A stretch of 64,000 nt of DNA from Sphingobacteriia bacterium (GCA_017304675.1 JAFKLS010000020.1:54300-118299), one strand, 5' to 3'. Positions 24,718 to 54,916 are shown, numbered from the stretch's first letter. A program made the numbers and translations. The notes: generated by a model not told the origin, from the letters alone.

Positions 24718-27246
24718 TTGTTTAACTTATTTTTGATGTGTATGTTGCAAAACACCATAGGATATAGAATTGTTACACAATGGATGCACAGCAAAGGCCT
24801 GAAACCATTTGCTTTTCAGGAAGAAACCTGGCAACATGTTCTTAAAACGGAAAGTGGTTTGGTAAATGCACCAACCGGCTGTGGCAAAACATATGCTGTT
24901 TTTTTAGGGAGCATTATCCGGTTTATTAATACTCACCCGCAAAGTTATCAGCAACTAAAATATAATGGATTACAATTACTTTGGATTACCCCTCTAAGAG
25001 CGTTGGCCAAAGATATAGCCAGGGCAATGCAGGAAGTCATTACTGAATTGAATATGTCATGGGAAGTGGGCATAAGAAACGGAGATACAACTATCGCAGA
25101 ACGCAACAGACAGAAAAAAAACACACCTGAGATTTTAATTATCACACCCGAAAGCCTCCATTTACTTCTGGCTCAGAAAAACAACCACTCTTTTTTTGCC
25201 TCTTTAGAAACAATTGCAATAGATGAGTGGCATGAGTTAATGGGAAGCAAAAGAGGTGTGCAAACAGAGCTGGCGTTAAGCAGGATCATACCTATTGCTG
25301 CGCACAATAAATCGGGTGTATCTGTTTGGGGAATTAGTGCCACCATTGGCAACTTAGAGGAAGCTAAAGAAGTATTATTAAGCCCGTTGCACCGCTCTAA
25401 GCTTATAGAAACTTTTGTTATACAGGCGAATCTTCCCAAACAAACGGAAATCATTTCCATCATTCCCGATGAAATAGAAAAATATCCCTGGGCCGGGCAT
25501 TTGGGTATAAAGCTGGCCGAAAAAATTGTTCCCATAATTGAGCAAAGCAATACCACACTTATATTCATCAATACAAGAGGCATGAGTGAAATGTGGTATC
25601 AAACATTATTAAATATTGCCCCTCAACTGGCAGGAGCTATTGCTTTGCATCATGGAAGTATTGAACAGGAATTAAGGCTTTGGGTGGAAGAGTCTTTACA
25701 TACAAAAAAACTTAAAGCGGTTGTTTGTACGGCCAGCCTGGATCTCGGTGTTGATTTCAGGCCGGTTGATACGGTTATTCAGGTAGGTTCTCCTAAAGGC
25801 ATTTCCCGTTTTTTGCAACGAGCCGGAAGAAGCGGCCATCAACCCGGAGATACGAGTAAAATCTATTTCCTTCCTACACATTCTCTGGAATTAGTAGAGG
25901 CCGCTGCTTTAAAAAAAGCCGTAAGCAGCCGCATAATAGAAAGTAAAGAACCACTGGTTTTATGTTTTGATGTACTGATGCAGTATATGTGTACCCTTGC
26001 AGTAGGAGACGGATTTGTACCAGAACAGTTATTGCCCGAAATAAGGAGTACCTATAGTTTTTCAGAAATAACCGATACTGAATGGAAAGAAATATTACAG
26101 CACCTCAGTACCGGAGGCACAGCTTTACAGCATTATGATGATTATAAGAAAATAGAGATAACGGATGATGGTGTTTATACTATAAAGAACAGGAGAATGG
26201 CTATGCGCCATCGTATGCATATAGGCACAATAGTAAGCGATGCGATGCTTAAAGTAAAACTGTTGAATGGTAAATATATAGGTGTAATTGAGGAATGGTT
26301 CGTTAGTCGCCTGGAAACAGGTACCACTTTTACGCTGGCAGGAAGAAACCTGGAGCTGGTAGGCATAAAAGATATGAGTGTAATTGTTAAGCCATCTGCT
26401 TCCAAGAAAACAATTGTTCCCAGCTGGATGGGGGGAAGAATGAGTTTATCTGCAAACCTTGGTAAAATATTAAGGGAAACTTTTGCAGAAGCAGAAGCAA
26501 TGGTCAATGGACAATTGACAATGGACAATTCTTGCAATGAGCTACAAGCTTTGCAACCGCTCTTTCAACTTCAACAAGAATTATCACATATTCCATCCGA
26601 TAAAGAAACTTTAATTGAACAGATAGAAAGTAAAGACGGTTACCATCTTTTGGTATATCCTTTTGAAGGAAGGCAGGTACATGAAGCTATGAGTGCACTC
26701 ATAGCTTACAGGATAAGCCGGATAACACCCATTACTTTTTCAATAGCTATGAACGATTATGGTTTTGAACTGCTCAGCGATCAACCCATACCTGTTGATG
26801 ATACCAATGTTCATGAACTTTTCTTTACCAACCATCTGTTGAATGATATTCAAAAAAGCGTAAACAGTACAGAGATGGCAAGGAGAAAATTCAGAGATAT
26901 TGCGGCAATAGGCGGCCTTATTTTTCAGGGATACCCGGGTGAGCATAAAAAAGCAAGGCACCTGCAATCTTCAGCCGGGTTACTTTTCAATGTATTTGAA
27001 GAATATGAGCCCAATAATATTTTACTCAGGCAGGCATATAACGAAGTGCTGGAACAACAGATGGAAGAAGTTAGGCTAAGGAGTGCATTGAACAGGATTG
27101 CGGGCAATAAGATTGTGCTTACTTTTCCTGAAAAGTTTACACCGCTATCTTTTCCTATAGTTGTTGATGGGCTTAACCGAAACAACCTGTCTTCAGAAAA
27201 AATGGAAGAAAGGGTTAAAAGAATGCAGCAACAATTAAACAAATAA
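24718..27246 (+). CDS. Ligase-associated DNA damage response DEXH-box helicase (Lhr-core-like)
   Basis: Contains NAPTGCGKT (motif I), DEWHE (motif II) and QRAGRSGH (motif VI), plus a long C-terminal Lhr-type extension. The start is uncertain (TTG in the track). Confidence 0.85.
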   Translation: MFNLFLMCMLQNTIGYRIVTQWMHSKGLKPFAFQEETWQHVLKTESGLVNAPTGCGKTYAVFLGSIIRFINTHPQSYQQLKYNGLQLLWITPLRALAKDIARAMQEVITELNMSWEVGIRNGDTTIAERNRQKKNTPEILIITPESLHLLLAQKNNHSFFASLETIAIDEWHELMGSKRGVQTELALSRIIPIAAHNKSGVSVWGISATIGNLEEAKEVLLSPLHRSKLIETFVIQANLPKQTEIISIIPDEIEKYPWAGHLGIKLAEKIVPIIEQSNTTLIFINTRGMSEMWYQTLLNIAPQLAGAIALHHGSIEQELRLWVEESLHTKKLKAVVCTASLDLGVDFRPVDTVIQVGSPKGISRFLQRAGRSGHQPGDTSKIYFLPTHSLELVEAAALKKAVSSRIIESKEPLVLCFDVLMQYMCTLAVGDGFVPEQLLPEIRSTYSFSEITDTEWKEILQHLSTGGTALQHYDDYKKIEITDDGVYTIKNRRMAMRHRMHIGTIVSDAMLKVKLLNGKYIGVIEEWFVSRLETGTTFTLAGRNLELVGIKDMSVIVKPSASKKTIVPSWMGGRMSLSANLGKILRETFAEAEAMVNGQLTMDNSCNELQALQPLFQLQQELSHIPSDKETLIEQIESKDGYHLLVYPFEGRQVHEAMSALIAYRISRITPITFSIAMNDYGFELLSDQPIPVDDTNVHELFFTNHLLNDIQKSVNSTEMARRKFRDIAAIGGLIFQGYPGEHKKARHLQSSAGLLFNVFEEYEPNNILLRQAYNEVLEQQMEEVRLRSALNRIAGNKIVLTFPEKFTPLSFPIVVDGLNRNNLSSEKMEERVKRMQQQLNK
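26499..26533. repeat. Heptamer tandem array, AATTGAC family, inside the helicase CDS
   Basis: AATGGTC AATGGAC AATTGAC AATGGAC AATTCTT, five units, encoding MVNGQLTMDNS. Confidence 0.7.
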
Positions 27247-27250
27247 AAAA

Positions 27251-27274
27251 GGTAGCAACAAAATAGCTGCTACC
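27251..27274 (-). terminator. Weak terminator hairpin for the minus-strand membrane-protein gene
   Basis: GGTAGCA / TGCTACC 7-bp stem. On the minus strand it is followed by TTTTTT. Confidence 0.4.
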
Positions 27275-27294
27275 CTCCTTAAAATGCGTGTGCA

Positions 27295-27792
27295 TTATTT
27301 ATTGGTAAGATACTTACGTTGTAATGTATACAGGATAATGAACAATAACATAAATGCAAACCCTATTAAAGCGCCAAATCCGCTCACTGCTGCTTTTCCA
27401 AGCAATACGATCGTGCATATTGCCGGAACAATTTCGCCCATCAGCCAAATATAATATCCCTGCATTTTAAGTTTACGCATTTGCACCGCGCCAATAATAC
27501 AAAGTACACCACCCACAATGGTTACAATTAAAATAGGTAGCTTATTAGTAGCTGCAAGCCTTGCCTGTTCCAGTGCTTCCGGTGTAATCATTTTTTTTGC
27601 AAAATCAGGAAGTTTATCAAAGTCGGGGCTGTTTAAGGCTTTATCAAGATCTTCAACAGCTTTATCTGCACGAACAAATTGCCAGAATGCTCCGGCCAGG
27701 TTGAATAAACCGCTTCCAATAAAAGTTAAAATGGTTAATACATTAAGCGATGAAGGCAGCTTTCCTTCTTCAGGGTTGAAATTGGTGGTCAT
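27295..27792 (-). CDS. Hypothetical 4-TM membrane protein
   Basis: 165 aa with four hydrophobic helices. No family recognised. Confidence 0.5.
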   Translation of the reverse strand: MTTNFNPEEGKLPSSLNVLTILTFIGSGLFNLAGAFWQFVRADKAVEDLDKALNSPDFDKLPDFAKKMITPEALEQARLAATNKLPILIVTIVGGVLCIIGAVQMRKLKMQGYYIWLMGEIVPAICTIVLLGKAAVSGFGALIGFAFMLLFIILYTLQRKYLTNK

Positions 27793-27892
27793 TGTTATTT
27801 CGATTTTAATATGTTAAATGTAATTGCTTTCCTTTAAATAGTAAAGTGTAAAAAATGATTACTGAATGAAATGTGGATAATAGATTTGCAAC

Positions 27893-28558
27893 ATGCAGCA
27901 ACCGGTACCATTTATATTGGCAGAACAACAGTTATGGCTTAGCGAACAAAGATGTATTTTTTGGGAAACACACAAAGCACTGATTGTTTCAGATATTCAT
28001 TTTGGCAAAACCGGTCATTTCAGAAAAAGTGGAATAGCCATACCACAGGCGGTTTTCAAAGAAGACTTACAAAGGTTGGTTGATTGCATCAGTTTCTTTA
28101 AAGCAGAACAATTAATAGTTGTTGGAGATCTTTTTCACAGTATTGCCAATAAAGAGTTGGACCTTTTTGTAAAATGGCGCAACGATTTATCTCATTTACA
28201 TATACACCTCATTAAAGGTAATCATGATATTTTAAAAGATGAATGGTATGCAAGTGCAGGAATACAAATTACAGAACATAGATTACAGATGGCAGATTTT
28301 TGTTTTGTGCATTCAATTGAAGAAATCAATCTTGAAGAAGAACAAAACAATTTCTTTTTTTCAGGGCATATTCATCCGGGTATCAGCATCAAAGGCAACA
28401 GTAAACAAACATTGCGATTCCCTTGTTTCTATTTCACCAAACAATATGCAGTATTGCCGGCATTCAGCAGGTTCACAGGTTTAGCAGCCATCAAACCAAA
28501 AAAGAATGAAAAAGTTTTTGCAATCGTGAATGAAAATGTAATGTCATTGAATGATTAA
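27893..28558 (+). CDS. pdeM: Ligase-associated DNA damage response endonuclease PdeM (metallophosphoesterase)
   Basis: The calcineurin-like motifs SDIHFGK, VGDLFH, GNHD and GHIHP are present in PdeM order. Confidence 0.8.
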   Translation: MQQPVPFILAEQQLWLSEQRCIFWETHKALIVSDIHFGKTGHFRKSGIAIPQAVFKEDLQRLVDCISFFKAEQLIVVGDLFHSIANKELDLFVKWRNDLSHLHIHLIKGNHDILKDEWYASAGIQITEHRLQMADFCFVHSIEEINLEEEQNNFFFSGHIHPGISIKGNSKQTLRFPCFYFTKQYAVLPAFSRFTGLAAIKPKKNEKVFAIVNENVMSLND

Positions 28559-29450
28559 AATTGCTTACGATACCATTTATGCTCATCCTTTACCCGAAGG
28601 GCACCGGTTTCCCATGTTGAAATATGAATTGATTCCTGAACAATTATTACATGAAGGAACCATTACACAGGAAAATATTTTTAAACCAAGAGCATGTGAA
28701 GAAGAGCTTGTATTGCTTACACATGCAGAAGAATATTTCAATAAGCTAAAACATCAAACATTAACAGCATCAGAACAAAGAAAGATCGGCTTTCCGCAGT
28801 CACCGCAATTAACACAAAGAGAATTAATAATCACGCAAGGATCAATTGATTGTTGTTATCATGCCATGAAAAACGGCGTGGCATTAAATATTGCCGGAGG
28901 AACACACCATGCTTTTGCAAATCGTGGCGAAGGCTTTTGTTTGTTGAATGATTTTGCCGTTGCAGCAAACTATTTATTGCACCAAAAAGATGCGAAACAA
29001 ATTCTAATTATCGACCTGGATGTTCATCAGGGAAACGGAACTGCCAAGCTTTTTGAAAAGAATAAAAACGTTTTCACATTCAGTATGCATGGAGCACACA
29101 ATTATCCTTTTCACAAAGAAAAAAGTGATCTGGATATTGGATTGAAAGATGGTACCACCGGAAAAGAATATTTGGAAATATTAAAAACTACTCTACCACA
29201 ATTAATTGAACGAGTGAAACCCGATTTTGCTTTTTATTTATCGGGAGTGGATATTCTTGAGACAGACAAATTCGGGAAACTAAAAGTAAACATAGACGAA
29301 TGCAAACAAAGAGATGCGTTCGTTTTCACACAATTGAAAAAACATAATATTCCCGTAACAGTGGCTATGGGTGGCGGTTATTCACCCGAAATAAAAACGA
29401 TTGTAGAAACCCATTGCAATACGTTCAGAATAGCTGGTTCCCTGTATTAA
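28551..29450 (+). CDS. Histone deacetylase family (AcuC/HDAC-like) protein
   Basis: GGTHHAFANRGEGFCLLND and DLDVHQGNGT are present. The start overlaps the pdeM stop by 8 nt (ATGATTAA). Confidence 0.85.
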   Translation: MIKIAYDTIYAHPLPEGHRFPMLKYELIPEQLLHEGTITQENIFKPRACEEELVLLTHAEEYFNKLKHQTLTASEQRKIGFPQSPQLTQRELIITQGSIDCCYHAMKNGVALNIAGGTHHAFANRGEGFCLLNDFAVAANYLLHQKDAKQILIIDLDVHQGNGTAKLFEKNKNVFTFSMHGAHNYPFHKEKSDLDIGLKDGTTGKEYLEILKTTLPQLIERVKPDFAFYLSGVDILETDKFGKLKVNIDECKQRDAFVFTQLKKHNIPVTVAMGGGYSPEIKTIVETHCNTFRIAGSLY

Positions 29451-29454
29451 AAAA

Positions 29455-29472
29455 GGCCGGTAGACACCGGCC
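29455..29472. terminator. Terminator hairpin between convergent genes
   Basis: GGCCGGT / ACCGGCC 7-bp GC stem with a 4-nt loop. The T-run is on the minus strand, so it serves the XRE/S24 gene. Confidence 0.6.
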
Positions 29473-29492
29473 CTTATTACTAACTAACCCAA

Positions 29493-30248
29493 CTAATTCA
29501 ATTTCTTTTTTAAACTGCTTACCTGCTCTTGCAGATTATTGACCATTCCGGCAAGTGAGTTTACATCCCAATGTTGAATAGTGTTTGCTTTTTGCAAAAC
29601 GTATACCGCCTTCCACATTTCCAATACATCCTCTGCATTTACATTGTATGGTTCATATTGTGGATTATCACTGACAAGTGTAAGCTTGTTCTTAGTGCGA
29701 TTATTCTTCATCACCCGTTTATACACTACACCTTCGTTCCTGCTCAAAACAATATAGGTATTGCTGCTTTTCAGGCTTTCCAGATCATCTACCTTCTCCC
29801 CTACAATCACACTGCCGCTGGGGGTAGGCAACATACTATCACCTATAATTTCAAAGGCACGATATTGTCCCGGAGCCAGCATTGGTAAAGTAAACGTATT
29901 CAATTCATCTATAAAATCAGGATCTGCATAACCGGCCAAATAGCCTGCAGCCGCTTTTACAGGTACAAACTGTATTTCCGCACTACTTAATGCCGCCATT
30001 TTTTGTTTTCGGCGTTGTTCTATATAACTACTTCCTTTTGCAGCACTAAGATCTTTTAATAATAGATCATCCAAACTCAATTTAAAAATAGTACAGACTT
30101 CTTCCAATGCTTCTAATCGTGGCTCTGCACGTTCTTCTTCATAGGCACCTACCAAAGATCGTTTTACATTAATCTTTTGGGCAAATTCTTCCTGAGTCCA
30201 CCCTCTTAATTTTCTGAGATAGCGAAAATTTTTTCCTGCATAACTCAT
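29493..30248 (-). CDS. LexA-like repressor: XRE-family HTH plus S24 autopeptidase domain
   Basis: HTH segment FRYLRKLRGWTQEEFAQKINV. A possible Ala-Gly cleavage site lies in VKAAAGY. Ser is in GDSM and Lys in VYKRV. A C-terminal coiled-coil tail is extra. I moved the start to the ATG at 30248. Confidence 0.8.
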   Translation of the reverse strand: MSYAGKNFRYLRKLRGWTQEEFAQKINVKRSLVGAYEEERAEPRLEALEEVCTIFKLSLDDLLLKDLSAAKGSSYIEQRRKQKMAALSSAEIQFVPVKAAAGYLAGYADPDFIDELNTFTLPMLAPGQYRAFEIIGDSMLPTPSGSVIVGEKVDDLESLKSSNTYIVLSRNEGVVYKRVMKNNRTKNKLTLVSDNPQYEPYNVNAEDVLEMWKAVYVLQKANTIQHWDVNSLAGMVNNLQEQVSSLKKKLN

Positions 30249-30473
30249 AACTAATAAATTTAGATTCAAGTGCAAAATACTAAAAAAATTAGTTTTTCAA
30301 AAAAAAATTTTACTCCTATCAAAATATTTTACTCCAACCGTTTCATAAACTTATGGCAACAGGTGATAATTTAGAATGAGCGGTATACAAATAAACTTTA
30401 ATCCGGCATAATGATTCAGCCATTTAGCAGTTGATGAAAATTTTGCTACGTTTTTTGCTTGTATCTTGCACCC

Positions 30474-31259: not shown

Positions 31260-31338
31260 ACACAGATTGCACAGATTTTTGCAGATATGAAAGCAAAATA
31301 AATTCGTGTAATTCGATAGAATTAGTGAAAAAAAAGAA

Positions 31339-31632
31339 ATGTTGAAGAAAGACAACCTTAAATTAGGCTTACTACTCGGCTTGTTAGCACCCTTATTGGG
31401 AATGCTGGGTTTTTATTTTTATAAATTCAGAAGATTGAGTTTTGCTGAATTCATTCAATATCTGGGAATAGAAAGGCACTTGCTTACAGCGATGATCAGT
31501 TTTTCACTTTTGGCAAATGCCATCATTTTTACAGTTTATATCAATGCACAAAAAGACAAAACAGCAAGAGGCATTTTTATCATTACAATAATTTATGCCA
31601 TTGCTGCTTTGTTATTAAAATGGTTGTATTAA
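31339..31632 (+). CDS. Small hypothetical 3-TM membrane protein
   Basis: 97 aa and hydrophobic. No family recognised. Confidence 0.45.
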   Translation: MLKKDNLKLGLLLGLLAPLLGMLGFYFYKFRRLSFAEFIQYLGIERHLLTAMISFSLLANAIIFTVYINAQKDKTARGIFIITIIYAIAALLLKWLY

Positions 31633-31633
31633 G

Positions 31634-31661
31634 GATGTACGATGGCTGATGTATGATTTTT
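31634..31661. repeat. Heptamer tandem array (GATGNNN)
   Basis: GATGTAC GATGGCT GATGTAT GATTTTT, in the spacer between convergent genes. Confidence 0.55.
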
Positions 31662-31676
31662 GTTTATGAAAATTTA

Positions 31677-42497: not shown

Positions 42498-43517
42498 ATG
42501 ACGATACTGCAAAACATTTCCCTTAAACCTTACAATACTTTCGGTATAGATGTTACTGCAAAACAATTCGCAACATTTACATCTGTTGAAGAATTAAAAG
42601 AATTGATTTCAAATTCAAAGTTCAAAACGCAAAATTCAAAATTGATTCTTGGTGGCGGAAGCAATATTCTTTTCACAAAAGATTTTGACGGCATCATTTT
42701 AAAAAATGAACTGAAAGGAATTGAACTGGTTCATCAGGATGAAGAATATTTTTATATAAAAGCTGCTGCCGGAGAAAACTGGCATTCTTTTGTTTTGCAT
42801 TGCTTAAATCACAATTATGCAGGCATTGAAAACCTAAGCCTTATTCCCGGAACAGTTGGAGCCAGCCCCATGCAAAACATAGGTGCATATGGCATTGAAA
42901 TAAAAGATATTTTTTATCAGTTAGAAGCGCTGCATATTACCACACAAACGGTTCAAACATTTAACATAGAAGATTGTGGCTTTGGTTATAGAACCAGTGT
43001 TTTTAAAACCAAACTCAAAAATGAGTTCATTATTCTGAACGTTACCTATAAACTTCGCAAAAAAGCAGTGCTGAATACCAGCTACGGAGCTATTGAAAAA
43101 GAGTTAGAGGCCATGCATATTGCCGAGCCAAATATTCAATCGGTTGCAGATGCTGTTATCCGTATCCGTTCATCCAAGTTACCCGATCCTGCAAGAATTG
43201 GCAATGCCGGTAGCTTCTTTAAAAACCCTGTAATATCAAAATTCAGGCGGCATGCTATTGCAGAGCGTTTTAAAGATCTGCCATCTTTTGTAATTGACGA
43301 CATGCATTATAAGATTGCAGCAGGATGGTTAATTGAAAAGTGTGGTTTTAAAGGATTTAGAAAGGGTGATGCAGGCTGTCATAAAGATCAGGCCCTGGTA
43401 CTGGTAAATTATGGCCACGCCAAGGGCTCTGAGATATTTGATTTAAGTGAAACCATAATCAGCGCAGTAAAAAAAGAATTTGGTATAGAACTGGAAAGGG
43501 AAGTGAACATTTATTAA
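42498..43517 (+). CDS. murB: UDP-N-acetylmuramate dehydrogenase
   Basis: LKPYNTFGI...GGGSNILF...AGSFFKNP are typical of MurB. Confidence 0.9.
   Translation: MTILQNISLKPYNTFGIDVTAKQFATFTSVEELKELISNSKFKTQNSKLILGGGSNILFTKDFDGIILKNELKGIELVHQDEEYFYIKAAAGENWHSFVLHCLNHNYAGIENLSLIPGTVGASPMQNIGAYGIEIKDIFYQLEALHITTQTVQTFNIEDCGFGYRTSVFKTKLKNEFIILNVTYKLRKKAVLNTSYGAIEKELEAMHIAEPNIQSVADAVIRIRSSKLPDPARIGNAGSFFKNPVISKFRRHAIAERFKDLPSFVIDDMHYKIAAGWLIEKCGFKGFRKGDAGCHKDQALVLVNYGHAKGSEIFDLSETIISAVKKEFGIELEREVNIY
42604..42648. repeat. Heptamer tandem array (TTCAAAA family) inside murB
   Basis: AAATTCA AAGTTCA AAACGCA AAATTCA AAATTGA, encoding SNSKFKTQNSKL. Confidence 0.65.
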
Positions 43518-43608: not shown

Positions 43609-44943
43609 TTATTTTTTAGTTTTAAATTCTACTCTTCTGTTCTCTGCTCTGCCTTTTACTGTTTTGTTATCGGCAACTGGCTGAGAAGAACCAAAACCTG
43701 CAGCACTTAATCTTTCAGCGGCAATACCATTTTTCACAAAATAATCTTTTACTGCATCAGCACGTTTTTGAGATAATGCAAGGTTTGTTTTATCAGAACC
43801 TGTATTATCGGTATAACCTTCAATAATCAAATTCAAAGAAGCATGGTCTTTTAATATAGTAACGGCTTTATCAAGTTCTGCTTTAGCCACTTTTGTTAAT
43901 ACGGCAGTGCCTGTAGCAAACTGAACCTGTTTGTAGTTGAAGCCAAAGTCTTTAATTTCAGGGCAACCTGCATTAGAAGCTGGTCCTTTTTCAGTAGGGC
44001 ATTTATCTTCTTCATCGTTTACACCATCACCATCGGTATCAGGGATAGGACAACCCTGGTAACGTGCAACACCGGGTACAGTAGGGCATTTATCTTCTTC
44101 ATCGTTAATACCATCACCATCGGTATCAGGAATTGGGCAACCTTGGTATTTTGCCACACCCGGTACGGTTGGGCATTTGTCGTTCTCATCATTAATACCA
44201 TCACCATCGGTATCAGGAACAGGACAACCCTGGTATTTTGCCACACCCGGTACAGTAGGGCATTTATCCTGATCATCAGGAATACCATCTTTGTCTGTAT
44301 CTACCACAACTGGAGCCGGAGGTGGTGGTGGAGTTGGAGCCAACACAGGAGCAGCTTTTTTCTCAGTTAATGGTGATGAGAAACCTAGAGAATAATGGAA
44401 ATTATAGTTAGAAAGATCACTAACTCTTAAATGGTAATTCCATTGCAGGTTAATAAAAGAACCTTCGCCTAATTTAAATTGTAAACCGGTTCCAACAGGA
44501 ATATACGCATAATAATATGTACCTCCTACCATACCAGCACCAACACCGGCAGACAAATAAGGTACTACCGCATAGTTATCTGTTAACAGTTTTAAGTTAA
44601 CATTGGCATCTGATTCTAGTAAGAACTTATCGGTTCCAACCTTTGTTCCATTATAAAAAGGGTAGTTTACAAAAGTGCCATGCAAACTGGCCATAAAATC
44701 AATGTAATCGTTCAATCCCTGAAAATAGGATATAGACATACCCGGATTCATATTAGATACTTTATTCCAGCTACCATCTCTTAACACAGAGCCTAATCCA
44801 TTCTGGCCGATCAAATCCGGAGTTACATAATCTTTCAAAAAAAAGTTGATGCCTAATGTAGGGCGTTTTGTTAAGTCTGTTTTTTGGCTAAATGCAATTA
44901 CTGTCGAAAATAATACCACCAGTAAAGAAGCAATTTTTCTCAT
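43609..44943 (-). CDS. OmpA family outer-membrane protein with thrombospondin type-3 repeats
   Basis: An N-terminal beta-barrel, a Pro-rich linker, repeated DKCPTVPGVAKYQGCP.PDTDGDGINDE units, and a C-terminal OmpA domain (NTGSDKTNLALSQKRADAV). Confidence 0.85.
   Translation of the reverse strand: MRKIASLLVVLFSTVIAFSQKTDLTKRPTLGINFFLKDYVTPDLIGQNGLGSVLRDGSWNKVSNMNPGMSISYFQGLNDYIDFMASLHGTFVNYPFYNGTKVGTDKFLLESDANVNLKLLTDNYAVVPYLSAGVGAGMVGGTYYYAYIPVGTGLQFKLGEGSFINLQWNYHLRVSDLSNYNFHYSLGFSSPLTEKKAAPVLAPTPPPPPAPVVVDTDKDGIPDDQDKCPTVPGVAKYQGCPVPDTDGDGINDENDKCPTVPGVAKYQGCPIPDTDGDGINDEEDKCPTVPGVARYQGCPIPDTDGDGVNDEEDKCPTEKGPASNAGCPEIKDFGFNYKQVQFATGTAVLTKVAKAELDKAVTILKDHASLNLIIEGYTDNTGSDKTNLALSQKRADAVKDYFVKNGIAAERLSAAGFGSSQPVADNKTVKGRAENRRVEFKTKK
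44002..44290. repeat. 87-bp tandem repeat, about 3.3 copies, encoding the TSP3 calcium-binding units
   Basis: Units start at 44002, 44089, 44176 and 44263 and are roughly 85 percent identical by eye. Confidence 0.8.
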
Positions 44944-46001: not shown

Positions 46002-46036
46002 GAATTATGGATTAAGAATTATGAGTTATTAAGATT
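46002..46036. repeat. Heptamer tandem array (GAATTAT family), intergenic
   Basis: GAATTAT GGATTAA GAATTAT GAGTTAT TAAGATT. Confidence 0.55.
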
Positions 46037-47386: not shown

Positions 47387-48703
47387 TTACAAGTGATTTA
47401 CTGAGGCTCCCAATTTTTGCAAATGCTCATAAAAGTTGGGATACGATTTATTGATGGCATTCGCTTCTTCAATTGCTGTATTGCCTTCTGCTCTTAACGC
47501 TGCGACAGCACAAGCCATTGCAATACGATGATCGTGACGAGAATGCACTGTTGCTCCTTTCAATCCGTTGCCACCTTTTATCATCATCAGGTCATCCTGC
47601 AATTCTATTTCAACACCTAACTTTTTAAATTCTTCCTGTAAGGTTAATCCTCTGTCACTTTCTTTATGCGCCAATCTTGAAACACCTTCTATCACTGTTG
47701 TTCCTTCGCAATAAGATGCTAATGCAACAAGCGGCGGAAATAAATCCGGACAATCAGTTGCATTAAAATGAAATGCTTTACCCCTAGCCCCTGAAGGGGG
47801 ATTAGAGATTTCAATTTCATTATCTCTAATAGAAATTTTGCAACCACAATCTTGCAAAGCTTCAATAATTTTTTTATCTGCCTGTGTTGATTGAATATCT
47901 AATCCTTTCACTACAATCCCATTTTGTGCAGCAACAGCACCAGCCACTAATAAAAATGCACCTCCACTCCAATCGCTTTCAACAGTGTAATTGACAATTG
48001 ACAATTGACGATTGACAATTGACGATTGAAAAATAAATTTTTCATAATTATGATTAACCGGAACATTCAAACCGAAGTCTTCCATCACTTTTAGAGTGAG
48101 ATCAACATAAGGTTTGCTCTTCAGATTATTCACTGAAATACTAACACCATCAGCGTTTGAAGCCGCATAGGCCAACAAAAATCCTGTTAAGAATTGAGAA
48201 CTTAAACTGCCATCGATTGTGATGTTTTTTGGTTGTAACGGACCTTTTACAACTAACGGAAGTTTCCCTTGATTCGATTGAATGAAAACATCTAACTGCG
48301 GAAGAATTTCATCAAAAAAATTCATCGGCCTTGTTGTTAAACTTCCCGAACCGTTGATCGTAATTTCACTTGAACTCAATGCAACCAATGGTGTGAACAT
48401 TCTAATGCTTAATCCGCTTTCACCACAATTGATAGATATAGGTGAATGGTGAGTGGTGAATGGTGAATGAATAATAGCATTCGTGCTATCTATCAATAAT
48501 TGACCATTTACAATTGACCATTCACATCCCATTTCTTTAATGATGCTTAACGCCGCTTTATCATCGTTACTGATGCCGGGATTATGTATGATTGATTTTC
48601 CTTTTCGCACCAAAGCCGCCGCACATGCCCTTTGCATAGAGCTTTTAGATGCAGGTGCAGTAATGGTTCCGGAAACAAATGAAGGTTGTATTTGAACGAT
48701 CAC
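47387..48703 (-). CDS. aroA: 3-phosphoshikimate 1-carboxyvinyltransferase (EPSP synthase), carrying three mini-repeat segments
   Basis: APASKSSMQRA, LAHKESDR and HDHRIAMA are present. At 438 aa it is longer than I expect for the family. Confidence 0.9.
   Translation of the reverse strand: MIVQIQPSFVSGTITAPASKSSMQRACAAALVRKGKSIIHNPGISNDDKAALSIIKEMGCEWSIVNGQLLIDSTNAIIHSPFTTHHSPISINCGESGLSIRMFTPLVALSSSEITINGSGSLTTRPMNFFDEILPQLDVFIQSNQGKLPLVVKGPLQPKNITIDGSLSSQFLTGFLLAYAASNADGVSISVNNLKSKPYVDLTLKVMEDFGLNVPVNHNYEKFIFQSSIVNRQLSIVNYTVESDWSGGAFLLVAGAVAAQNGIVVKGLDIQSTQADKKIIEALQDCGCKISIRDNEIEISNPPSGARGKAFHFNATDCPDLFPPLVALASYCEGTTVIEGVSRLAHKESDRGLTLQEEFKKLGVEIELQDDLMMIKGGNGLKGATVHSRHDHRIAMACAVAALRAEGNTAIEEANAINKSYPNFYEHLQKLGASVNHL
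47781..47800. repeat. C4/G4 mini hairpin element inside aroA
   Basis: CCCCTAGCCCCTGAAGGGGG, encoding PPSGARG. It shares the 11-mer CCCCTGAAGGG with 55558 and 56067. Confidence 0.75.
47989..48030. repeat. Heptamer tandem array, AATTGAC x6 (42 bp), inside aroA
   Basis: AATTGAC AATTGAC AATTGAC GATTGAC AATTGAC GATTGAA, encoding QSSIVNRQLSIVNY. Confidence 0.85.
48431..48472. repeat. Heptamer tandem array, AATGGTG family (42 bp), inside aroA
   Basis: GATAGAT ATAGGTG AATGGTG AGTGGTG AATGGTG AATGAAT, encoding HSPFTTHHSPISI. Confidence 0.75.
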
Positions 48704-48705
48704 GT

Positions 48706-49725: not shown

Positions 49726-49753
49726 GGTCAATAGTCAATAGTCCATTGTCAAT
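49726..49753. repeat. Heptamer tandem array (GTCAATA, the AATTGAC family in reverse complement), intergenic
   Basis: GGTCAAT AGTCAAT AGTCCAT TGTCAAT. Confidence 0.65.
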
Positions 49754-49770
49754 ATTTATGAATCAACGAT

Positions 49771-49798
49771 CGTGGACTGTCGACCGTTGACCGTTAAC
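49771..49798. repeat. Heptamer tandem array (CGTTGAC family), intergenic
   Basis: CGTGGAC TGTCGAC CGTTGAC CGTTAAC, ending at the stop codon of the upstream gene. Confidence 0.65.
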
Positions 49799-50884
49799 TT
49801 ATGAATTCATAATCCTATTTTGATGGCTGATACTTTCCATATGCACCGCATCAAAATATTTAGTGATGAACTCTTTACTTAAACCTAATTTCTCACCTTT
49901 TGCAAACGCTCTTTCCAAAATGGAGTTCCAACGATTGGTTTGTAAAATGGTGATGTTATTATCTTTTTTATACTGACCGATTTTTTCAGCAACTTTCATA
50001 CGTTGACCAAGAATTTGCATCAACTCATCATCCAAATGATTGATTTGTTGACGTAATTTTTCCAAAGCCGCATGATATTCTTCATTGGCAACATCTTCTT
50101 TTCTCCAATGAATATTGCTGATCATTTCACCCAGGCGTTCAGGTGTAATTTGTTGTTTGGCATCACTCCATGCATTATCAGGATCAATATGGCTTTCAAT
50201 GATCAATCCGTCATAATGTAAATCAATTGCTTTTTGTGCAACATCCTGTAAAATATCTCTTCTGCCACAAATGTGAGAAGGATCGTTAATCATCATTAAT
50301 TCAGGATTTCTTCTTTTCATTTCAATCGCTAAATGCCACATAGGAGCATTGCGATATTCTGTATTGCCGTAAGAAGAAAATCCACGGTGAATTAATCCGA
50401 TTTTATTAATACCTGCTTTTGCTACACGTTCAACAGCACCCAGCCATAATTCCAAATCTGGATTGATCGGATTTTTAATTAATACAGGAACATCAACACC
50501 TTTCAACGCATCAGCAACTTCTTGCACACTGAATGGATTAACAGTTGTTCTTGCACCGATCCATAAAATATCAACATCAAAATGCAAAGCATCTTCTACC
50601 TGCTTACCTGTTGCCACTTCAATTGCTACGGGCAAGCCTGATAAAGCTTTTGCTTTTTGCAACCAAGGCAAGCCTTTTGTACCAACGCCTTCAAAAGTTC
50701 CGGGACGGGTACGAGGTTTCCAAATACCTGCACGAAGTACATCTACTTTACCTGTAGCAGCCAAACGTGTTGCAGTTGCCACTACTTGCTCTTCTGTTTC
50801 TGCACTGCAGGGGCCGCTGATGATAAGCGGGCGTTTATTCCAAACTTCACTGATTGATTTTGATAATGTTTCTGTTTGTTCCAT
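49799..50884 (-). CDS. Bifunctional 3-deoxy-7-phosphoheptulonate synthase (KDO8PS-like class I-beta) / chorismate mutase type II
   Basis: An N-terminal DAHPS barrel (ISGPCSAE...RAGIWKPRT...DPSH) and a C-terminal CM2 helix bundle (LRQQINHLDDELMQILGQRM). Confidence 0.85.
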   Translation of the reverse strand: MEQTETLSKSISEVWNKRPLIISGPCSAETEEQVVATATRLAATGKVDVLRAGIWKPRTRPGTFEGVGTKGLPWLQKAKALSGLPVAIEVATGKQVEDALHFDVDILWIGARTTVNPFSVQEVADALKGVDVPVLIKNPINPDLELWLGAVERVAKAGINKIGLIHRGFSSYGNTEYRNAPMWHLAIEMKRRNPELMMINDPSHICGRRDILQDVAQKAIDLHYDGLIIESHIDPDNAWSDAKQQITPERLGEMISNIHWRKEDVANEEYHAALEKLRQQINHLDDELMQILGQRMKVAEKIGQYKKDNNITILQTNRWNSILERAFAKGEKLGLSKEFITKYFDAVHMESISHQNRIMNS

Positions 50885-50941
50885 TTCGAAATGTTTAAGA
50901 TTAGAATGTTTTAGTTTAATTCTATCTCAGGTGTGTATTGT

Positions 50942-51020
50942 AAGTCAAAATTCAAAAGTGAAAAGTCAAAACCCAAAGCAATAAACTTTTTCTTTTCACT
51001 TTTGCCTTTTTACTTTTTAT
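50942..51020. repeat. Inverted pair of heptamer arrays (GTSAAAA x5 / TTTTSAC x5) forming a long hairpin
   Basis: GTCAAAA TTCAAAA GTGAAAA GTCAAAA CCCAAAG, then CTTTTTC TTTTCAC TTTTGCC TTTTTAC TTTTTAT. The perfect 13-bp core is CAAAAGTGAAAAG (50953-50965) pairing with CTTTTCACTTTTG (50992-51004). Confidence 0.75.
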
Positions 51021-52676
51021 TTATCTGCTATTCGCATCATTCATTCTGATTCTTCTGCCACGATAGTTTTTACCATCAATTGCAGCGATCATTTGCTTTG
51101 CAGCTTTTTTCTCAATTTCAACCCAGCTGTTCATTTCTTTCATATCAATTCTTCCCAACACTTCTTTACGCAAATCACTCATATCTAAAATGAACTGTAA
51201 AAAACTTGCTTTATAAAAACCATCTTTCGTTCCAAGGTTTACAAACAATCTTGCATAATCGCTGCCGCCATGTTGAGCGCCTCTGTTATCTCTGCCTCTG
51301 CTTCTTCCCTGATCTCTTCCATCACCCGCATCTCTTCTTTCTCTGCGTTGTTCACGAATATTCAAATCACCTGCATTTTCATAATATTTCAAGAAACGAT
51401 CAAACTCAGTTGCTGCCATTCTTGTAAGAATTTCTTCTTTAGTAACGTCTGCAAATTTTTCCTGCAGCATTGGTAAATAAGTTTGATAATCTCCATGGGA
51501 AATATCTACCTGCAATAATTTATCCATGAAATGATAAAACTGTTTTCTGCAAACATCTTTACCACTTGGAATTTCCAGTTTATGAAAAGTGGCTTGCACC
51601 ATTTTTTCAATCGAACGAATCTTGTACACATCTTTTGTATGCACGATACTCATACAAATACCTGTGCTTCCAGCCCTACCCGTACGGCCGCTTCTGTGTG
51701 TATACACTTCAATATCGTCAGGTAATTCAAAATTGATAACGTGTGTAATTTCTTTCACATCAATACCACGAGCCGCAACATCTGTTGCCACCAACAACTG
51801 CAAGGTTTTATCGCGAAACTCACCCATTACTTTATCACGTTGTTGCTGCGTTAAATCGCCATGCAAAGCATCAATATCGTAACCATCTCTGGTTAATTTT
51901 TCAGCAATATTTTGTGCATCAACTTTGGTACGAGTGAAAATGATACCATACATTCCCGGATTGAAATCAATCAATCTTTTTAATGCTTCGTAACGTTGAC
52001 TGGCATTTACAACAAAGTATTGATGATCGATACTTTTGTTGGTCGTATTCATTTTACCAACCGTTACTTCCACGGGATCTTTCATGTAACGCTTACTAAC
52101 TCTGCGAATTTCAGCTGGCATAGTTGCGCTGAATAACCAGGTAGATTCACGCTTTGGAGTATTTTCTAAAATGAATTCAATATCATCTTTAAAACCCATG
52201 TTCAGCATTTCATCTGCTTCATCTAAAACCACATAACTGATCTGTTCTAAGTTGATGGCTTTCCTTTCGATTAAATCAATCAATCTCCCCGGAGTTGCCA
52301 CCACTATCTGAACGCCTCTTCTCAAGTCGCGGATCTGCATACTGATAGATGCACCACCATACACCGCCACAACGTGTAGCCCTGGCATGAACTTTTTAAA
52401 CCCTTCAATTTCTGTTACGATCTGCATACACAATTCACGTGTAGGGCAAACCACCAATGCTTGCGGATATCTCTGAGAAGCATCTACTAATTGTAATAAT
52501 GGCAAGCCAAATGCTGCCGTTTTTCCTGTGCCTGTTTGAGCCAATCCAATTAAATCCTTCGTACCGTTTAGCAATACAGGAATAGCCTTTTCCTGTATTA
52601 AAGTTGGGTTCACAAACCCCAACGCATCGGTAGCTTTAATCAAATTCGCATCCAAGCCTAACTCACTAAATGTCAT
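51021..52676 (-). CDS. DEAD-box ATP-dependent RNA helicase with an RG-rich linker and DbpA-like C-terminal RNA-binding domain
   Basis: Q-motif, AQTGTGKT, DEADEM, SAT and HRSGRTGRAG are present. The C-terminus is ...RRERRDAGDGRDQGRSRGRDNRG... followed by the DbpA fold. Confidence 0.9.
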   Translation of the reverse strand: MTFSELGLDANLIKATDALGFVNPTLIQEKAIPVLLNGTKDLIGLAQTGTGKTAAFGLPLLQLVDASQRYPQALVVCPTRELCMQIVTEIEGFKKFMPGLHVVAVYGGASISMQIRDLRRGVQIVVATPGRLIDLIERKAINLEQISYVVLDEADEMLNMGFKDDIEFILENTPKRESTWLFSATMPAEIRRVSKRYMKDPVEVTVGKMNTTNKSIDHQYFVVNASQRYEALKRLIDFNPGMYGIIFTRTKVDAQNIAEKLTRDGYDIDALHGDLTQQQRDKVMGEFRDKTLQLLVATDVAARGIDVKEITHVINFELPDDIEVYTHRSGRTGRAGSTGICMSIVHTKDVYKIRSIEKMVQATFHKLEIPSGKDVCRKQFYHFMDKLLQVDISHGDYQTYLPMLQEKFADVTKEEILTRMAATEFDRFLKYYENAGDLNIREQRRERRDAGDGRDQGRSRGRDNRGAQHGGSDYARLFVNLGTKDGFYKASFLQFILDMSDLRKEVLGRIDMKEMNSWVEIEKKAAKQMIAAIDGKNYRGRRIRMNDANSR

Positions 52677-52828
52677 ATTCTGTTTTTAAAATTTGCGGCA
52701 AAGGTAACTAAAACCACTCCGTTGCCCTGTTTTATTTAGTAAAGTGTTGTTTAGCAAGCTTTTACCTTCATGGCATCGCCTGTTGCGTCGCACTCTTCAA
52801 CGCTTTGAACTTTACTTGTCAATTTTTT

Positions 52829-52897
52829 TGTCATGCTGAGATCGTCAAAGCATTTGCTACTTTTATTCTCAGATTCTTCGCTTCGCTCAGAATGACA
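52829..52897. repeat. REP/MITE-like palindromic intergenic element (GTCATTCTGAGCGAAGCGAAGAATC type)
   Basis: The terminal inverted repeat is TGTCATGCTGAG ... CTCAGAATGACA (11/12). It generates the spurious peptide HSERSEESE, which I remember as typical of a widespread Bacteroidota repeat. Confidence 0.6.
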
Positions 52898-52898
52898 A

Positions 52899-53627
52899 TT
52901 ATTGTAAAAATTTCCTCCAATTATTTTTCCAATAAGTTGAATAATCAAAGCCATGCTCACCTACTCGCTCAATTGTTTTCACAATATTTTCTTTAACCAT
53001 AGCTAATTGATTGTTATTAATCTTATAAATTATACCGTTTTTTGGTTCATATTTTTTATTCCTCTCAGAATAAATTGCAAATTGAAAAATTACACCCAGC
53101 TCTATTCTTTTATAATTTTTAATCTGGAATAAATGAGATACAAATTGTCCACTTTTTTCAGGTTGATAATCAAAAAACAACCCTAAATCCTTATCTATTA
53201 ATTGCATTTTTTGTTCATCAAATTCTTTTCCTGTATAAGTAAGATCATAATAAATTGAATCATTCAAATCTCTTGTCGAATATTCCCCACTTGAAACAAA
53301 TATGTTGTTTTGTGGATTAAAAAGATAAACATCATAACTTAATTTCTGCCAAACAGCAATATCAGGGAATCCGTTTTTATCAATATCTATACTTCTAATA
53401 TATTTCGCAGCATCAAAAAAAGAATCAATGGTCTTCCATTTATTGTTTTCAAATTTTTCAATTACAACATTTTCTTTTGTAGTATCCTCCAAGCGAATTT
53501 TAAATTTTACTTTATTAACATAAAATGTATCTCCTTTTACAGAAGGCCAATGAAAATCACTTGCTTGCCCTTTGCAAAAAGGATTGCAAAAAGTAAAAGT
53601 CAATAGTATCGTAAATACTTTTTTCAT
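52899..53627 (-). CDS. Hypothetical secreted protein, AT-rich, inserted within the aromatic gene cluster
   Basis: 242 aa. Signal peptide MKKVFTILLTFTF and one DIDKNGFPDIAV (FG-GAP/VCBS-like) segment. No family recognised. Confidence 0.5.
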   Translation of the reverse strand: MKKVFTILLTFTFCNPFCKGQASDFHWPSVKGDTFYVNKVKFKIRLEDTTKENVVIEKFENNKWKTIDSFFDAAKYIRSIDIDKNGFPDIAVWQKLSYDVYLFNPQNNIFVSSGEYSTRDLNDSIYYDLTYTGKEFDEQKMQLIDKDLGLFFDYQPEKSGQFVSHLFQIKNYKRIELGVIFQFAIYSERNKKYEPKNGIIYKINNNQLAMVKENIVKTIERVGEHGFDYSTYWKNNWRKFLQ

Positions 53628-53641
53628 TTTCCACTTTCCAT

Positions 53642-54535
53642 TTACTTAATAATTTTTCTGATCTTATTTGCCTTCTCCATCAGCTCATTTAAAAATTCAA
53701 GGTTCTCTTTTTCCAAAGCGCTTTTAAATTTCCTGAGTTGAGAAATATGTTCATTTAAAACATCCAATACATTTTCTTTGTTCTGCATAAAAATCGGCGC
53801 CCACATAGCTGGATTACTTTTTGCCAAACGAACGGTGCTTTCAAAACCACCACCGGCCAATTCAAAAATGGCATCTTCTTCTTTTTCTTTCTCTAAAACC
53901 GTATTCGCCAAAGCAAAAGAAGTGATGTGTGAAATATGGCTTACATAAGCCGCATGCATATCGTGATCATGTGCATTCATATACACCAAATGCATTCCCA
54001 ATTCTTTATAAATATTTTCAACAATCTCAACTGCTGTTGCATCACTTTTTTCTTTTTCACAGATCACACAAGCCCTGCCTGCAAACGCATTTTGCACAGC
54101 TGCTTCCGGACCACTATATTCTGTTCCCCACATAGGATGTGTTGCAACAAATCTTTTTCTGTTTGCATGATTTTCTAAAGCCTCGCATAAAGCAAATTTT
54201 GTAGACCCCGCATCCACCACAATTTGTTTGTCATTCACCAAATCCATTATTTGTTGCATAATAGGAATGGTAGCATCAACAGGAATGGCCACATAAATCA
54301 AATCAGCTTTTTTAACGGCTTCTTCCAAAGGCAATACTTCATCTACCAAATTCAATTGCAACACTTTTTGCTTTGTTTCTTCTCTATTGCACACACCAAT
54401 GATATGCGATGCCAACTTTTTATTTTTTAAAGCCAACGCAAATGAACCACCAATTAATCCAACACCCACGACACAAACTGACAATTGAGAATTGACAATT
54501 GACAATTGGAGATTATTATCTGTACTATTTGTCAT
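53642..54535 (-). CDS. tyrA: Prephenate dehydrogenase
   Basis: The Rossmann segment VVGVGLIGGSFALAL and HPMWG are present. The first ~18 codons are encoded by a heptamer array, so the true start is uncertain. Confidence 0.85.
   Translation of the reverse strand: MTNSTDNNLQLSIVNSQLSVCVVGVGLIGGSFALALKNKKLASHIIGVCNREETKQKVLQLNLVDEVLPLEEAVKKADLIYVAIPVDATIPIMQQIMDLVNDKQIVVDAGSTKFALCEALENHANRKRFVATHPMWGTEYSGPEAAVQNAFAGRACVICEKEKSDATAVEIVENIYKELGMHLVYMNAHDHDMHAAYVSHISHITSFALANTVLEKEKEEDAIFELAGGGFESTVRLAKSNPAMWAPIFMQNKENVLDVLNEHISQLRKFKSALEKENLEFLNELMEKANKIRKIIK
54476..54517. repeat. Heptamer tandem array, AATTGAC family, encoding the tyrA N-terminus
   Basis: AACTGAC AATTGAG AATTGAC AATTGAC AATTGGA GATTATT, encoding NNLQLSIVNSQLSV. 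Confidence 0.8.
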
Positions 54536-54581
54536 TACTCTGTTTGCTTGATTTAATGATACTAATTAATAATTTCAGCAA

Positions 54582-54887
54582 CTATTTACAATCAGAATTA
54601 AGGCTTTCAAAGAGCTTTTGATCCAAATAACCTGATTGATGCAATAATTCTAACCAATATTCAGTTTCATTTGCTTCTTTCAGTGCAATTGATAATTTAT
54701 GAATAAAATCAGTTTTACTTTGAGCTTGTTCTGCTTCTCGAATATTTGCTCCAATTGAAGTTCCACTTCGCAACAATTGCTTTGACAAAATATGTTCTTG
54801 CTTCTCCGAACACAAATATTGATTGCATTTAACTATTCTAAGTGCAAAGGCAAAACTTTTCTCTTTTAAAATATTTTCTTTCTTCAT
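54582..54887 (-). CDS. Four-helix-bundle protein (23S rRNA intervening-sequence protein / Avd family)
   Basis: About 101 aa. SFAFALRIVK...QLLRSGTSIGANIREA...F..KLSIALKEANETEYWLELL is the TIGR02436/PF05635 pattern. ATG at 54887. Confidence 0.8.
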   Translation of the reverse strand: MKKENILKEKSFAFALRIVKCNQYLCSEKQEHILSKQLLRSGTSIGANIREAEQAQSKTDFIHKLSIALKEANETEYWLELLHQSGYLDQKLFESLNSDCK

Positions 54888-54888
54888 T

Positions 54889-54916
54889 GTCAATTATCAA
54901 TTGTCAATTTTTAATT
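54889..54916. repeat. Heptamer tandem array GTCAATT (inverted relative to 54476-54517)
   Basis: GTCAATT ATCAATT GTCAATT TTTAATT. It spans the gap between the aminotransferase stop and the four-helix-bundle start. Confidence 0.75.

Follow-up and report, generated by a model that had tools for sequence, protein, structure and literature searches.

Heptanucleotide tandem arrays in an aromatic amino acid gene cluster of a Bacteroidota genome, and a four-helix-bundle gene enclosed by one array family

The gene cluster and its arrays

We analyzed a 64-kb stretch of DNA from a Sphingobacteriia bacterium (GCA_017304675.1, JAFKLS010000020.1:54300-118299; hereafter the window), in which tandem arrays of heptanucleotide units lie inside and between genes of aromatic amino acid biosynthesis. 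The best matches of its AroA protein were those of Chitinophagaceae and other Bacteroidota, with identities of up to 97%. The G+C content of the window was 34–40%, and the arrays were 71% A+T. Most arrays lay in a co-directional minus-strand aromatic amino acid cluster consisting of pheA, an aminotransferase gene, a small gene encoding a four-helix-bundle protein, tyrA, an open reading frame (ORF) of 242 aa, the genes of a DEAD-box helicase and of 3-deoxy-d-arabino-heptulosonate 7-phosphate (DAHP) synthase/chorismate mutase, aroB, aroA, and aroC.

The arrays were detected with Tandem Repeats Finder (TRF; score 30) and with a separate lag-match scan (score ≥12). The lag-match scan gave five arrays of period 7 (0.0 in 50 dinucleotide-preserving shuffles) and 0–1 arrays for each of the other periods between 4 and 15, with the exception of period 14 (twice 7). 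The arrays noticed in a sequence-only reading of this stretch are therefore a real excess, and it is period 7 alone that is in excess. TRF reported ten rows of period 7 or 14 with 3.4–5.9 copies each (Table 1), and four CGTTGAC units, which pair with the array at 49727, were read directly at 49771, where the sequence-only reading had placed them. That reading had counted at least eleven arrays of 4–6 units; about ten are solid, and the two at 31634 and 46002, which TRF did not report, are weak. It had also described the arrays as window-wide, which overstated their spread: nine of the eleven lie in the 7-kb aro operon (47.9–54.9 kb), and no array of three or more copies was present at 1–26 kb or 55–64 kb. 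The length of exactly 42 bp that it gave for the cleanest coding arrays belongs to one array only, that of AroA loop 2, the other coding arrays measuring 29–33 nt. The periodic peptides that it quoted (SIVNRQLSIVN and LQLSIVNSQLS) were correct on translation.

The arrays occur in three contexts, namely intergenic inverted pairs, solo arrays in AroA, Lhr, and MurB, at loops or linkers of low confidence, and an inverted AATTGAC pair around a TIGR02436 gene. Half of the set is non-coding. No Rfam family overlapped any array of the window. Scans of 46–57.5 kb for sigma-70 promoters and intrinsic terminators performed no better than on shuffled sequence, though the repeated unit contains TTGACA; this type of scan does not cover Bacteroidota promoters.

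The window arrays are heptanucleotide simple-sequence repeats of the short tandemly repeated repetitive (STRR) kind, a class already known in bacteria, and the likeness to cyanobacterial STRR sequences drawn in the sequence-only reading holds. The classical STRR1–3 units of heterocystous cyanobacteria are CCCCAGT, TTGGTCA, and CAACAGT. The present arrays differ from these in their Chitinophagaceae host, in their units (AATTGAC, AATGGTG, and AAAAGTC), and in the location of several arrays inside core enzymes, where the units found in one protein loop vary with the lineage. They resemble the STRR and long heptanucleotide repeats, as far as these are summarized in later papers (Mazel 1990 and Mrazek 2007, cited in PMC4692102 and PMC4679880), in having 3–8 tandem 7-nt units, dispersed arrays with a few shared units, a strong period-7 excess, a mostly intergenic location, and a unit number that varies between strains. 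Heptanucleotide repeats have been recognized since 2007 as the dominant class of long simple-sequence repeats in bacteria, and the same papers (PMC4679880, PMC4692102) give no accepted mechanism or function for them.

Table 1. Arrays and associated features of the window, units of AroA loop 2 in related loci, and loci of the array-bounded cassette.
Feature	Position or locus	Strand	Context	TRF copies (interval)
AATGGAC/AATTGAC array, 4.6 units	26498–26529	+	Lhr-like helicase gene; encodes MVNGQLTMDN	4.6 (26498–26529)
GATGNNN repeat, weak	31634–31660	.	intergenic, doubtful; about 4 of 7 positions repeat	absent at score 30
ATTCAAA array, degenerate, about 4.7 units	42604–42643	+	murB; encodes SNSKFKTQNSK; found by TRF and in the sequence	4.7, 76% matches (42611–42643)
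GAATTAT repeat, weak	46002–46036	.	intergenic, doubtful; about 4 of 7 positions repeat	absent at score 30
GTCAATY array, 6 units, 42 nt, 14 codons	47988–48029	−	aroA loop 2; encodes QSSIVNRQLSIVN	5.9 (47989–48029)
CATTCAC array, about 4 units	48441–48469	−	aroA loop 1; encodes HSPFTTHHSP	4.1 (48441–48469)
Period-14 segment	48498–48526	−	aroA, beta-hairpin EWSIVNGQL; conserved coding sequence	period 14 (48498–48526)
Inverted pair, TATTGAC ×3.5 and CGGTCAA ×4 (mRNA sense)	49727–49798	−	fills the whole spacer from DAHP synthase stop to aroB ATG	4.0 (49727–49754)
Inverted pair, AAAAGTC family	50942–51019	−	hairpin between DEAD-box helicase and DAHP synthase genes	4.3 (50942–50971); 5.1 (50985–51019)
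Cassette 3′ arm, AATTGTC ×4.3	54476–54510	−	N-terminal extension of the longest tyrA ORF; encodes LQLSIVNSQLS	4.3 (54479–54508)
Four-helix-bundle gene, 101 aa	54582–54887	−	PF05635 (23S_rRNA_IVP), TIGR02436
Cassette 5′ arm, AATTGAC ×3.5	54884–54918	−	adjoins ATG of the four-helix-bundle gene	3.4 (54886–54909)
AroA loop 2 unit GTCAATT	window		period 7
AroA loop 2 unit GTCAACN	L149, L192		period 7
AroA loop 2 unit ATCACAA	L126, L137		period 7
AroA loop 2 unit ACTCACC/GACTCAC	L145, L147, L148		period 7
AroA loop 2 unit ACTATCA	L132		period 7
AroA loop 2 unit CAATCAAC/AACCAATN	L124, L127, L163, L201		period 8; peptide NQPINQLT
Cassette locus	L187, L202, L203–L212		Chitinophagaceae; junction as in the window
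Cassette locus	L275		Flavobacteriaceae; between genes of a kinase (histidine kinase) and a response regulator
Cassette locus	L213, L276		Hydrogenedentota and a related genome with 59% GC
Cassette locus	L216		Anaerolineae; between hsdS and hsdR
Cassette locus	L220		Myxosarcina; type I restriction-modification operon, hsdS upstream, hsdR further downstream
Cassette locus	L278, L279		Coleofasciculus; downstream of hsdS, hsdR next in L279
Cassette locus	L057		Hormoscilla
Cassette locus	L045		Oscillospiraceae

Coding arrays and their replacement across lineages

We aligned the proteins that contain arrays with their homologs. Loop 2 of AroA is a native loop, only two residues longer than in E. coli-type 5-enolpyruvylshikimate-3-phosphate synthase (EPSPS), and MurB is one residue longer than P. 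aeruginosa MurB at the array site. By these alignments, the arrays of AroA loop 2 and MurB are not insertions; they coincide with native segments of the solved EPSPS and MurB structures. In regards to Lhr, the array lies in the linker between the Pfam domains WH_Lhr (residues 401–566) and DEAD_assoc (625–811). This linker is hypervariable in length, with about 10 residues in most orthologs and about 19 in the window, that is, about 9 aa more, and by this comparison the array is a lineage-specific insertion. The linkers of other lineages have insertions of their own, one of which holds both NGQWKMGNGELKIG and LPLTTHHSPL. The proposal that coding arrays are insertions thus held for Lhr and failed for AroA loop 2 and MurB. 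A search of the PDB with the Lhr linker segment returned no match. The peptide LPLTTHHSPL, in the ortholog P0246, is of the same heptamer-derived type as SPFTTHHSPI in loop 1 of the window AroA and as a peptide in AroA loop 2 of two related loci (L145 and L148); different genes therefore share the ACTCACC family.

The AroA loop 1 array lies within an extension of about eight residues that was found in the nearest clade only. It forms an inverted pair with the EWSIVNGQL segment (48442–48477 and 48490–48525; 78% complementary). The AlphaFold model of AroA had a mean predicted local distance difference test (pLDDT) score of 88.5 and placed both arrays in coil, loop 1 in its weakest block (60) and loop 2 across two blocks scoring 82 and 76, and it showed EWSIVNGQL as a confident beta-hairpin (strands 61–65 and 68–72). 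The coding arrays of the window are confined to coil, linker, or terminal segments. In this respect they resemble the tandem repeats of Borgs (PMC9879509), which lie inside ORFs, always keep the frame, evolve fast, and occupy low-complexity or disordered segments. The Borg units are longer and their in-gene lengths are multiples of three, whereas a 7-nt unit keeps the frame only by steps of three units.

We compared 80 aroA loci from metagenomes, 965 kb in total. The length of AroA loop 2 was near constant among them, and its DNA was periodic with differing units (Table 1). The loop of L149 exceeded that of L192 by 21 nt, which is exactly three units. Loop 1 likewise differed in its unit (window, CATTCAC; L125, CATTCAA; L124, GACTCCC), all units of an array having changed together. 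This concerted change points to arrays that were either homogenized internally or replaced repeatedly while the loop length was constrained. Recurrent array replacement in one AroA loop is new. Loop 2 is a family-wide hot spot in a well-understood enzyme, in which differing units, even of period 8, are exchanged at constant length, and it may be read as a natural record of array birth, homogenization, and three-unit steps under purifying selection. Period 8 is also the second commonest array period in the host family.

These comparisons bear on the explanation that codon usage, together with peptide repeats that are conserved or under selection, gives rise to the periodicity as a side effect. 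It fits the segment at 48498–48526, in which NGQLIIE-type residues are conserved and A+T-rich codons produce AATGGAC AATTGAT AATTGAA (also in L132); the orthologs are near-identical in residues without DNA periodicity, and this segment is, on that comparison, ordinary conserved coding sequence. Such a finding had been offered in the sequence-only reading as a refutation of the arrays, and it applies here and not to the remaining arrays. Shuffled sequence gave no arrays, a 7-nt period reads the unit in all three frames, which is beyond what selection on protein can produce, orthologous loops change their peptide yet retain the DNA period, and the non-coding half of the arrays encodes no peptide. 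As a general account, chance or protein-level selection has a negligible probability, and it was ruled out for all arrays but 48498–48526.

Intergenic pairs, unit-number change, and array turnover

The inverted pairs of the window folded into hairpins that fill whole spacers of the co-directional operon. The pair between the DAHP synthase gene and aroB was predicted to pair unit by unit, with an RNA folding energy of −26.5 kcal/mol (z −3.9), and the pair at 50942–51019 gave −23.2 kcal/mol (z −4.3). On these predicted folds, the intergenic pairs probably act as mRNA hairpins. They resemble the repetitive extragenic palindrome (REP), bacterial interspersed mosaic element (BIME), and REPIN sequences (PMC3116915), which are short repeats in dispersed families that form hairpins in the spacers of co-directional operons. 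They differ in that the stems consist of tandem 7-nt units rather than of a fixed palindromic unit, and no REP-associated tyrosine transposase was seen. An aro-specific operator role was rejected, as arrays of the AATTGAC unit adjoin unrelated genes elsewhere. At the aminotransferase-tyrA junction of L162, L163, and L149 we observed a different hairpin element with the arms GGCCTCCCCTAAATCCCCTCC...GGGGGAGGTTTGG, and its motif TCTCCCCTTCAGGGGGGCAGGGGG recurs inside AroA loop 1 of L187, L196, and L202.

The arrays might instead regulate in cis, as MacGregor proposed for the TAACTGA repeats (PMC4679880). Upstream of aroB and of the four-helix-bundle gene, arrays stop 0–2 nt short of the ATG, a placement like that in Beggiatoaceae and Flexibacter (PMC4679880), and their A+T-rich composition would suit such a role. 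However, their orientation is inconsistent, forward before aroB and the four-helix-bundle gene and reverse before tyrA, most arrays are paired in stems, by which the leader would be hidden and not exposed, and such a role leaves the coding arrays unexplained. We consider a cis-regulatory role improbable. The TAACTGA repeats, known from Beggiatoaceae, Cyanobacteria, and five Bacteroidetes, adjoin start codons and also occur inside ORFs; one orientation contains stops in all frames, and the other encodes protein peripheries (PMC4679880). The present AATTGAC unit is likewise a heptamer, of equal base composition, whose forward orientation gives stops in all frames and whose reverse gives a 7-residue periodic peptide. 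The two families also share positions within a few nucleotides of start codons or overlapping stops, rare coding copies that are peripheral, and a patchy distribution across phyla that suggests horizontal transfer. The unit, the many inverted hairpin pairs, the location of some arrays in internal enzyme loops, and the associated gene cassette set the present arrays apart. The heptamer direct repeats that MacGregor described in 2015 in five Bacteroidetes (PMC4679880) are also an equivalent in Bacteroidota, of which the sequence-only reading was not aware. The heptameric GGGAATC/GGGGAYT repeats of Xanthomonas and Nostoc (Rehm 2015, PMC4692102) lie near ORF ends, within 50 bp of starts or stops between co-directional ORFs, sometimes as inverted pairs, and differ in length between close species; these features are shared by the present arrays. 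The GGGAATC/GGGGAYT units are G-rich, form quadruplexes, and favor four units, whereas the arrays of the window are A+T-rich and can form no G-quadruplex.

The window was compared with related assemblies. L120 (96.6% identity) aligned without gaps over 3827 nt, and substitutions amounted to 2.9% in arrays and 3.4% elsewhere, an ordinary rate. Six assemblies from other sequencing runs, at 100% identity, were unchanged through all arrays covered. L123 (97.4% over 9.3 kb) differed by a single multi-base indel, which is one 7-nt unit (TTCAAAA) of the intergenic array at 50951, absent in L123. Furthermore, intergenic arrays of two Coleofasciculus strains (L278 and L279) differed in unit number, with 5 versus 8 in one case and 4 versus 5 in another. 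Single-unit slippage is shown by these differences, in intergenic arrays only, and the arrays are slippage-prone as the sequence-only reading supposed. No change of unit number in coding arrays was found in the eight related assemblies (L120, L123, and the six identical ones). Slippage in intergenic arrays and none in coding arrays is as purifying selection predicts and the opposite of what a contingency locus would show.

The sequence-only reading had also suggested that gain or loss of one unit would shift the frame of aroA, murB, lhr, or tyrA and give reversible knock-outs. Single-unit indels do occur in arrays of the heptamer class, and any change by one unit in a coding array shifts the frame. 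Reversible knock-outs are nevertheless unsupported, because the coding arrays were unchanged in all eight related assemblies. Moreover, the arrays are short (at most six units) and impure, with variant units, their hosts are core biosynthesis and cell-wall genes and not surface, restriction-modification, or virulence genes, and differences between lineages in coding arrays are three-unit steps. Contingency loci are thus a very unlikely explanation. The strain contrasts separate mutable intergenic arrays from frozen coding ones and argue against phase variation.

Period 7 also prevailed in the 965 kb of related aroA loci, with 57 arrays against 5 of period 6, 14 of period 8, and 8 of period 9. 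Clustering of 75 distinct arrays placed the three families of the window on top (AATTGAC, 16; AATGGTG/ACTCACC/ACCACTC, 10; AAAAGTC, 6), which bore out the earlier claim that the unit families are recurrent. Array density outside long ORFs was 11–20 times that inside, and about a third of the arrays had an inverted partner within 700 nt.

We consider that the arrays are repeats of the STRR kind that turn over by slippage or template switching and are filtered by selection, the intergenic pairs being structural and the coding arrays passengers, with a probability of roughly 0.65. Heptameric repeats are over-represented in many prokaryotic genomes, and polymerase slippage has been proposed for them, according to later summaries (Mrazek 2007, cited in PMC4692102 and PMC4679880). 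Chance proto-repeats, for instance AATTAAAAATTAA at the aminotransferase 3′ end, would seed arrays through replication slippage or template switching in a 7-nt register, and the units within each array would then be homogenized. In L135, a solo AATTAAG ×4.5 array runs on from the conserved aminotransferase 3′ end (AGAATTAAAAATTAA in relatives) and looks as if it had been born in place from a proto-repeat. Selection would retain only versions that preserve frame and loop length, which would explain the three-unit steps in genes and why arrays in ORFs run in the orientation without stops, GTCAATT, or use the variant AATGGAC, which also lacks them. That 3n units are preferred reflects filtering by selection and is no evidence on mechanism. 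The intergenic pairs would be structural intercistronic hairpins of the mRNA, in the manner of REP and BIME sequences, and the coding arrays tolerated passengers with no role in switching.

Several points weigh against turnover by slippage under selection as a complete account. (AATTGAC)×3 occurred at at least 119 loci in species-representative genomes; among the matches listed were Cyanobacteria (including Anabaena, Calothrix, Microcoleus, and Crocosphaera), Bacteroidota, Clostridia, Chloroflexota, Planctomycetota, Hydrogenedentota, and others. Viral contigs contained 33 stretches of (AATTGAC)×3, against 4, 13, and 1 for three permutations of the same composition. Slippage alone leaves this recurrence across many phyla, and hence the preference for the AATTGAC unit, unexplained. 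It also does not explain a clean 42-nt array in a native AroA loop with almost no change in length. The hairpin function is a prediction from the folding energies of one sequence each, without covariation, and the genome is represented by 64 kb only.

Four phage-like IMG/VR contigs (L228, L236, L243, and L255; 57–58% G+C) carried many intergenic hairpin elements consisting of (AATTGAC)4, a spacer of about 52 nt with a GTCGCC-TTCG-GGCGAC stem-loop, and (ATTGTCC)4. Each of these contigs had two near-identical copies 659 nt apart, and pairs of AAAACGC and AATTGAA units were also present.

The four-helix-bundle cassette

The gene between the aminotransferase gene and tyrA encodes a protein that matched PF05635 (E 5.6e-28; 97.7 bits, cut-off 33.8) and TIGR02436 (E 1.8e-29; 102.2 bits, cut-off 24; model positions 2–94 of 109). 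It is truncated by a TAG codon where homologs have GAG and about 17–19 more residues (101 versus 116–120 aa), and the truncation is common to all six assemblies at 100% identity. The two AATTGAC-family arms are inverted and formed a 24-bp stem around the whole ORF in both minimum-energy and centroid folds. The first AATTGAC unit of the 5′ arm provides the stop codon of the aminotransferase gene (TGA, 54904–54906). Translation of the 3′ arm requires that tyrA start at the upstream ATG; L203 has no alternative start, and tyrA of L187 starts after the array.

In most relatives the aminotransferase-tyrA junction measured only 14–40 nt and the cassette was absent. The architecture [AATTGAN]n–ORF–[NTCAATT]n was found in 11 contexts, including three cyanobacterial genera (Table 1), and in genomes of Bacteroidota, Cyanobacteria, Chloroflexota, Hydrogenedentota, and Bacillota. 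The encoded proteins were 67–84% identical across these phyla. The flanking pair was the sole period-7 signal in 3.3–4.4 kb in five independent contexts (six loci). In cassettes of other phyla (L216 and L278), the arms reach from the upstream stop codon to the downstream ATG and fill the spacer seamlessly. In a crude test with 100-nt flanks, the z values of the flank duplex were −5 to −12 in six other phylum contexts and weak in Chitinophagaceae, at −2.5 to +0.3. An array-bounded four-helix-bundle cassette common to several phyla is new; among the papers searched, none connects heptamer repeats with PF05635 or TIGR02436.

PF05635 proteins are related to the accessory protein Avd of diversity-generating retroelements (DGRs) and to ORFs in the intervening sequences (IVSs) of rRNA genes (PMC10053308). 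The window contains no rRNA, and the cassette does not lie in a 23S rRNA helix. We looked beside the cassette for a reverse transcriptase, template/variable repeats, and a transposase and found none; its neighbors in the window are the prephenate dehydratase, aminotransferase, prephenate dehydrogenase, and DEAD-box helicase genes, and those in other phyla belong to type I restriction-modification systems. The lack of a reverse transcriptase and template/variable repeats nearby also sets the cassette apart from Avd and its retroelements, so that it is not a DGR. In 23S rRNA IVSs, the ORF lies within inverted repeats that form a long stem, which is excised by RNase III. The cassette is similar in that its ORF is enclosed by inverted repeats with a predicted long stem and belongs to the same family, and differs in lying in operon spacers (aminotransferase-tyrA, hsdS-hsdR, and histidine kinase-response regulator) instead of an rRNA gene and in having arms of heptamer arrays.

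These properties raise the possibility, which we hold only tentatively, that the TIGR02436 gene and its inverted AATTGAN arrays form a horizontally mobile, IVS-like element of operon spacers in at least five phyla, and that the element or its Avd-like protein seeds, spreads, or maintains AATTGAC arrays. The AATTGAC arrays would then have been spread by this element, or be its landing pads or footprints, an origin that we regard as rather unlikely. The recurrence of one architecture from Chitinophagaceae to Oscillospiraceae, the isolation of the arm pair from other period-7 arrays, the identity of the proteins across phyla, the absence from the corresponding junction of most relatives, and the predicted pairing of the arms all argue for it, as do empty hairpins of matching polarity, such as those of L196 and of viral contigs. 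Such hairpins and the solo arrays might accordingly be relics, target sites, or binding sites of the Avd-like protein, although this too is doubtful. The gene was found next to the array at two of about 119 (AATTGAC)×3 loci among the matches listed, and the rest of the 130 adjoining ORFs that were scanned with Pfam were assorted housekeeping genes. The cassette therefore does not explain most arrays. Moreover, the other unit families of the window lack such a gene, no target-site duplication was evident at the cassette junctions, where the inverted arms are present, neither a transposase nor a reverse transcriptase accompanies the cassette, inheritance at one locus appears vertical within Chitinophagaceae, and the window copy is truncated. 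A wider four-helix-bundle hidden Markov model found no copy in the viral contigs. The earlier proposal of a mechanism that seeds or propagates arrays stood in part, the array-bounded cassette being a candidate vehicle for at least part of the AATTGAC family.

The cassette ties one heptamer family to a gene family related to Avd and to the IVS ORF. If it is indeed such an element, the heptamer arrays have their first associated gene, and if the link between cassette and arrays is causal, the puzzle of the heptamer repeats and that of the four-helix-bundle proteins would both be open to experiment. L108 (3741–4091) contains a four-helix-bundle homolog that is more distant (52% identity) and that, in place of AATTGAN arms, has CTTTTAT heptamers after it, with no clear inverted partner.

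Two further features of the window were observed. An 87-nt tandem repeat at 43992–44289 (3.4 copies, 85% matches) encodes a 29-residue protein repeat in a gene for an OmpA-family outer-membrane protein (444 aa; 43609–44943, minus strand) and has no relation to the heptamers. The 242-aa ORF between tyrA and the DEAD-box helicase gene (52899–53627, minus strand) had no Pfam or NCBIfam match; it is missing in L121, and in L203 a GNAT acetyltransferase gene takes its place.

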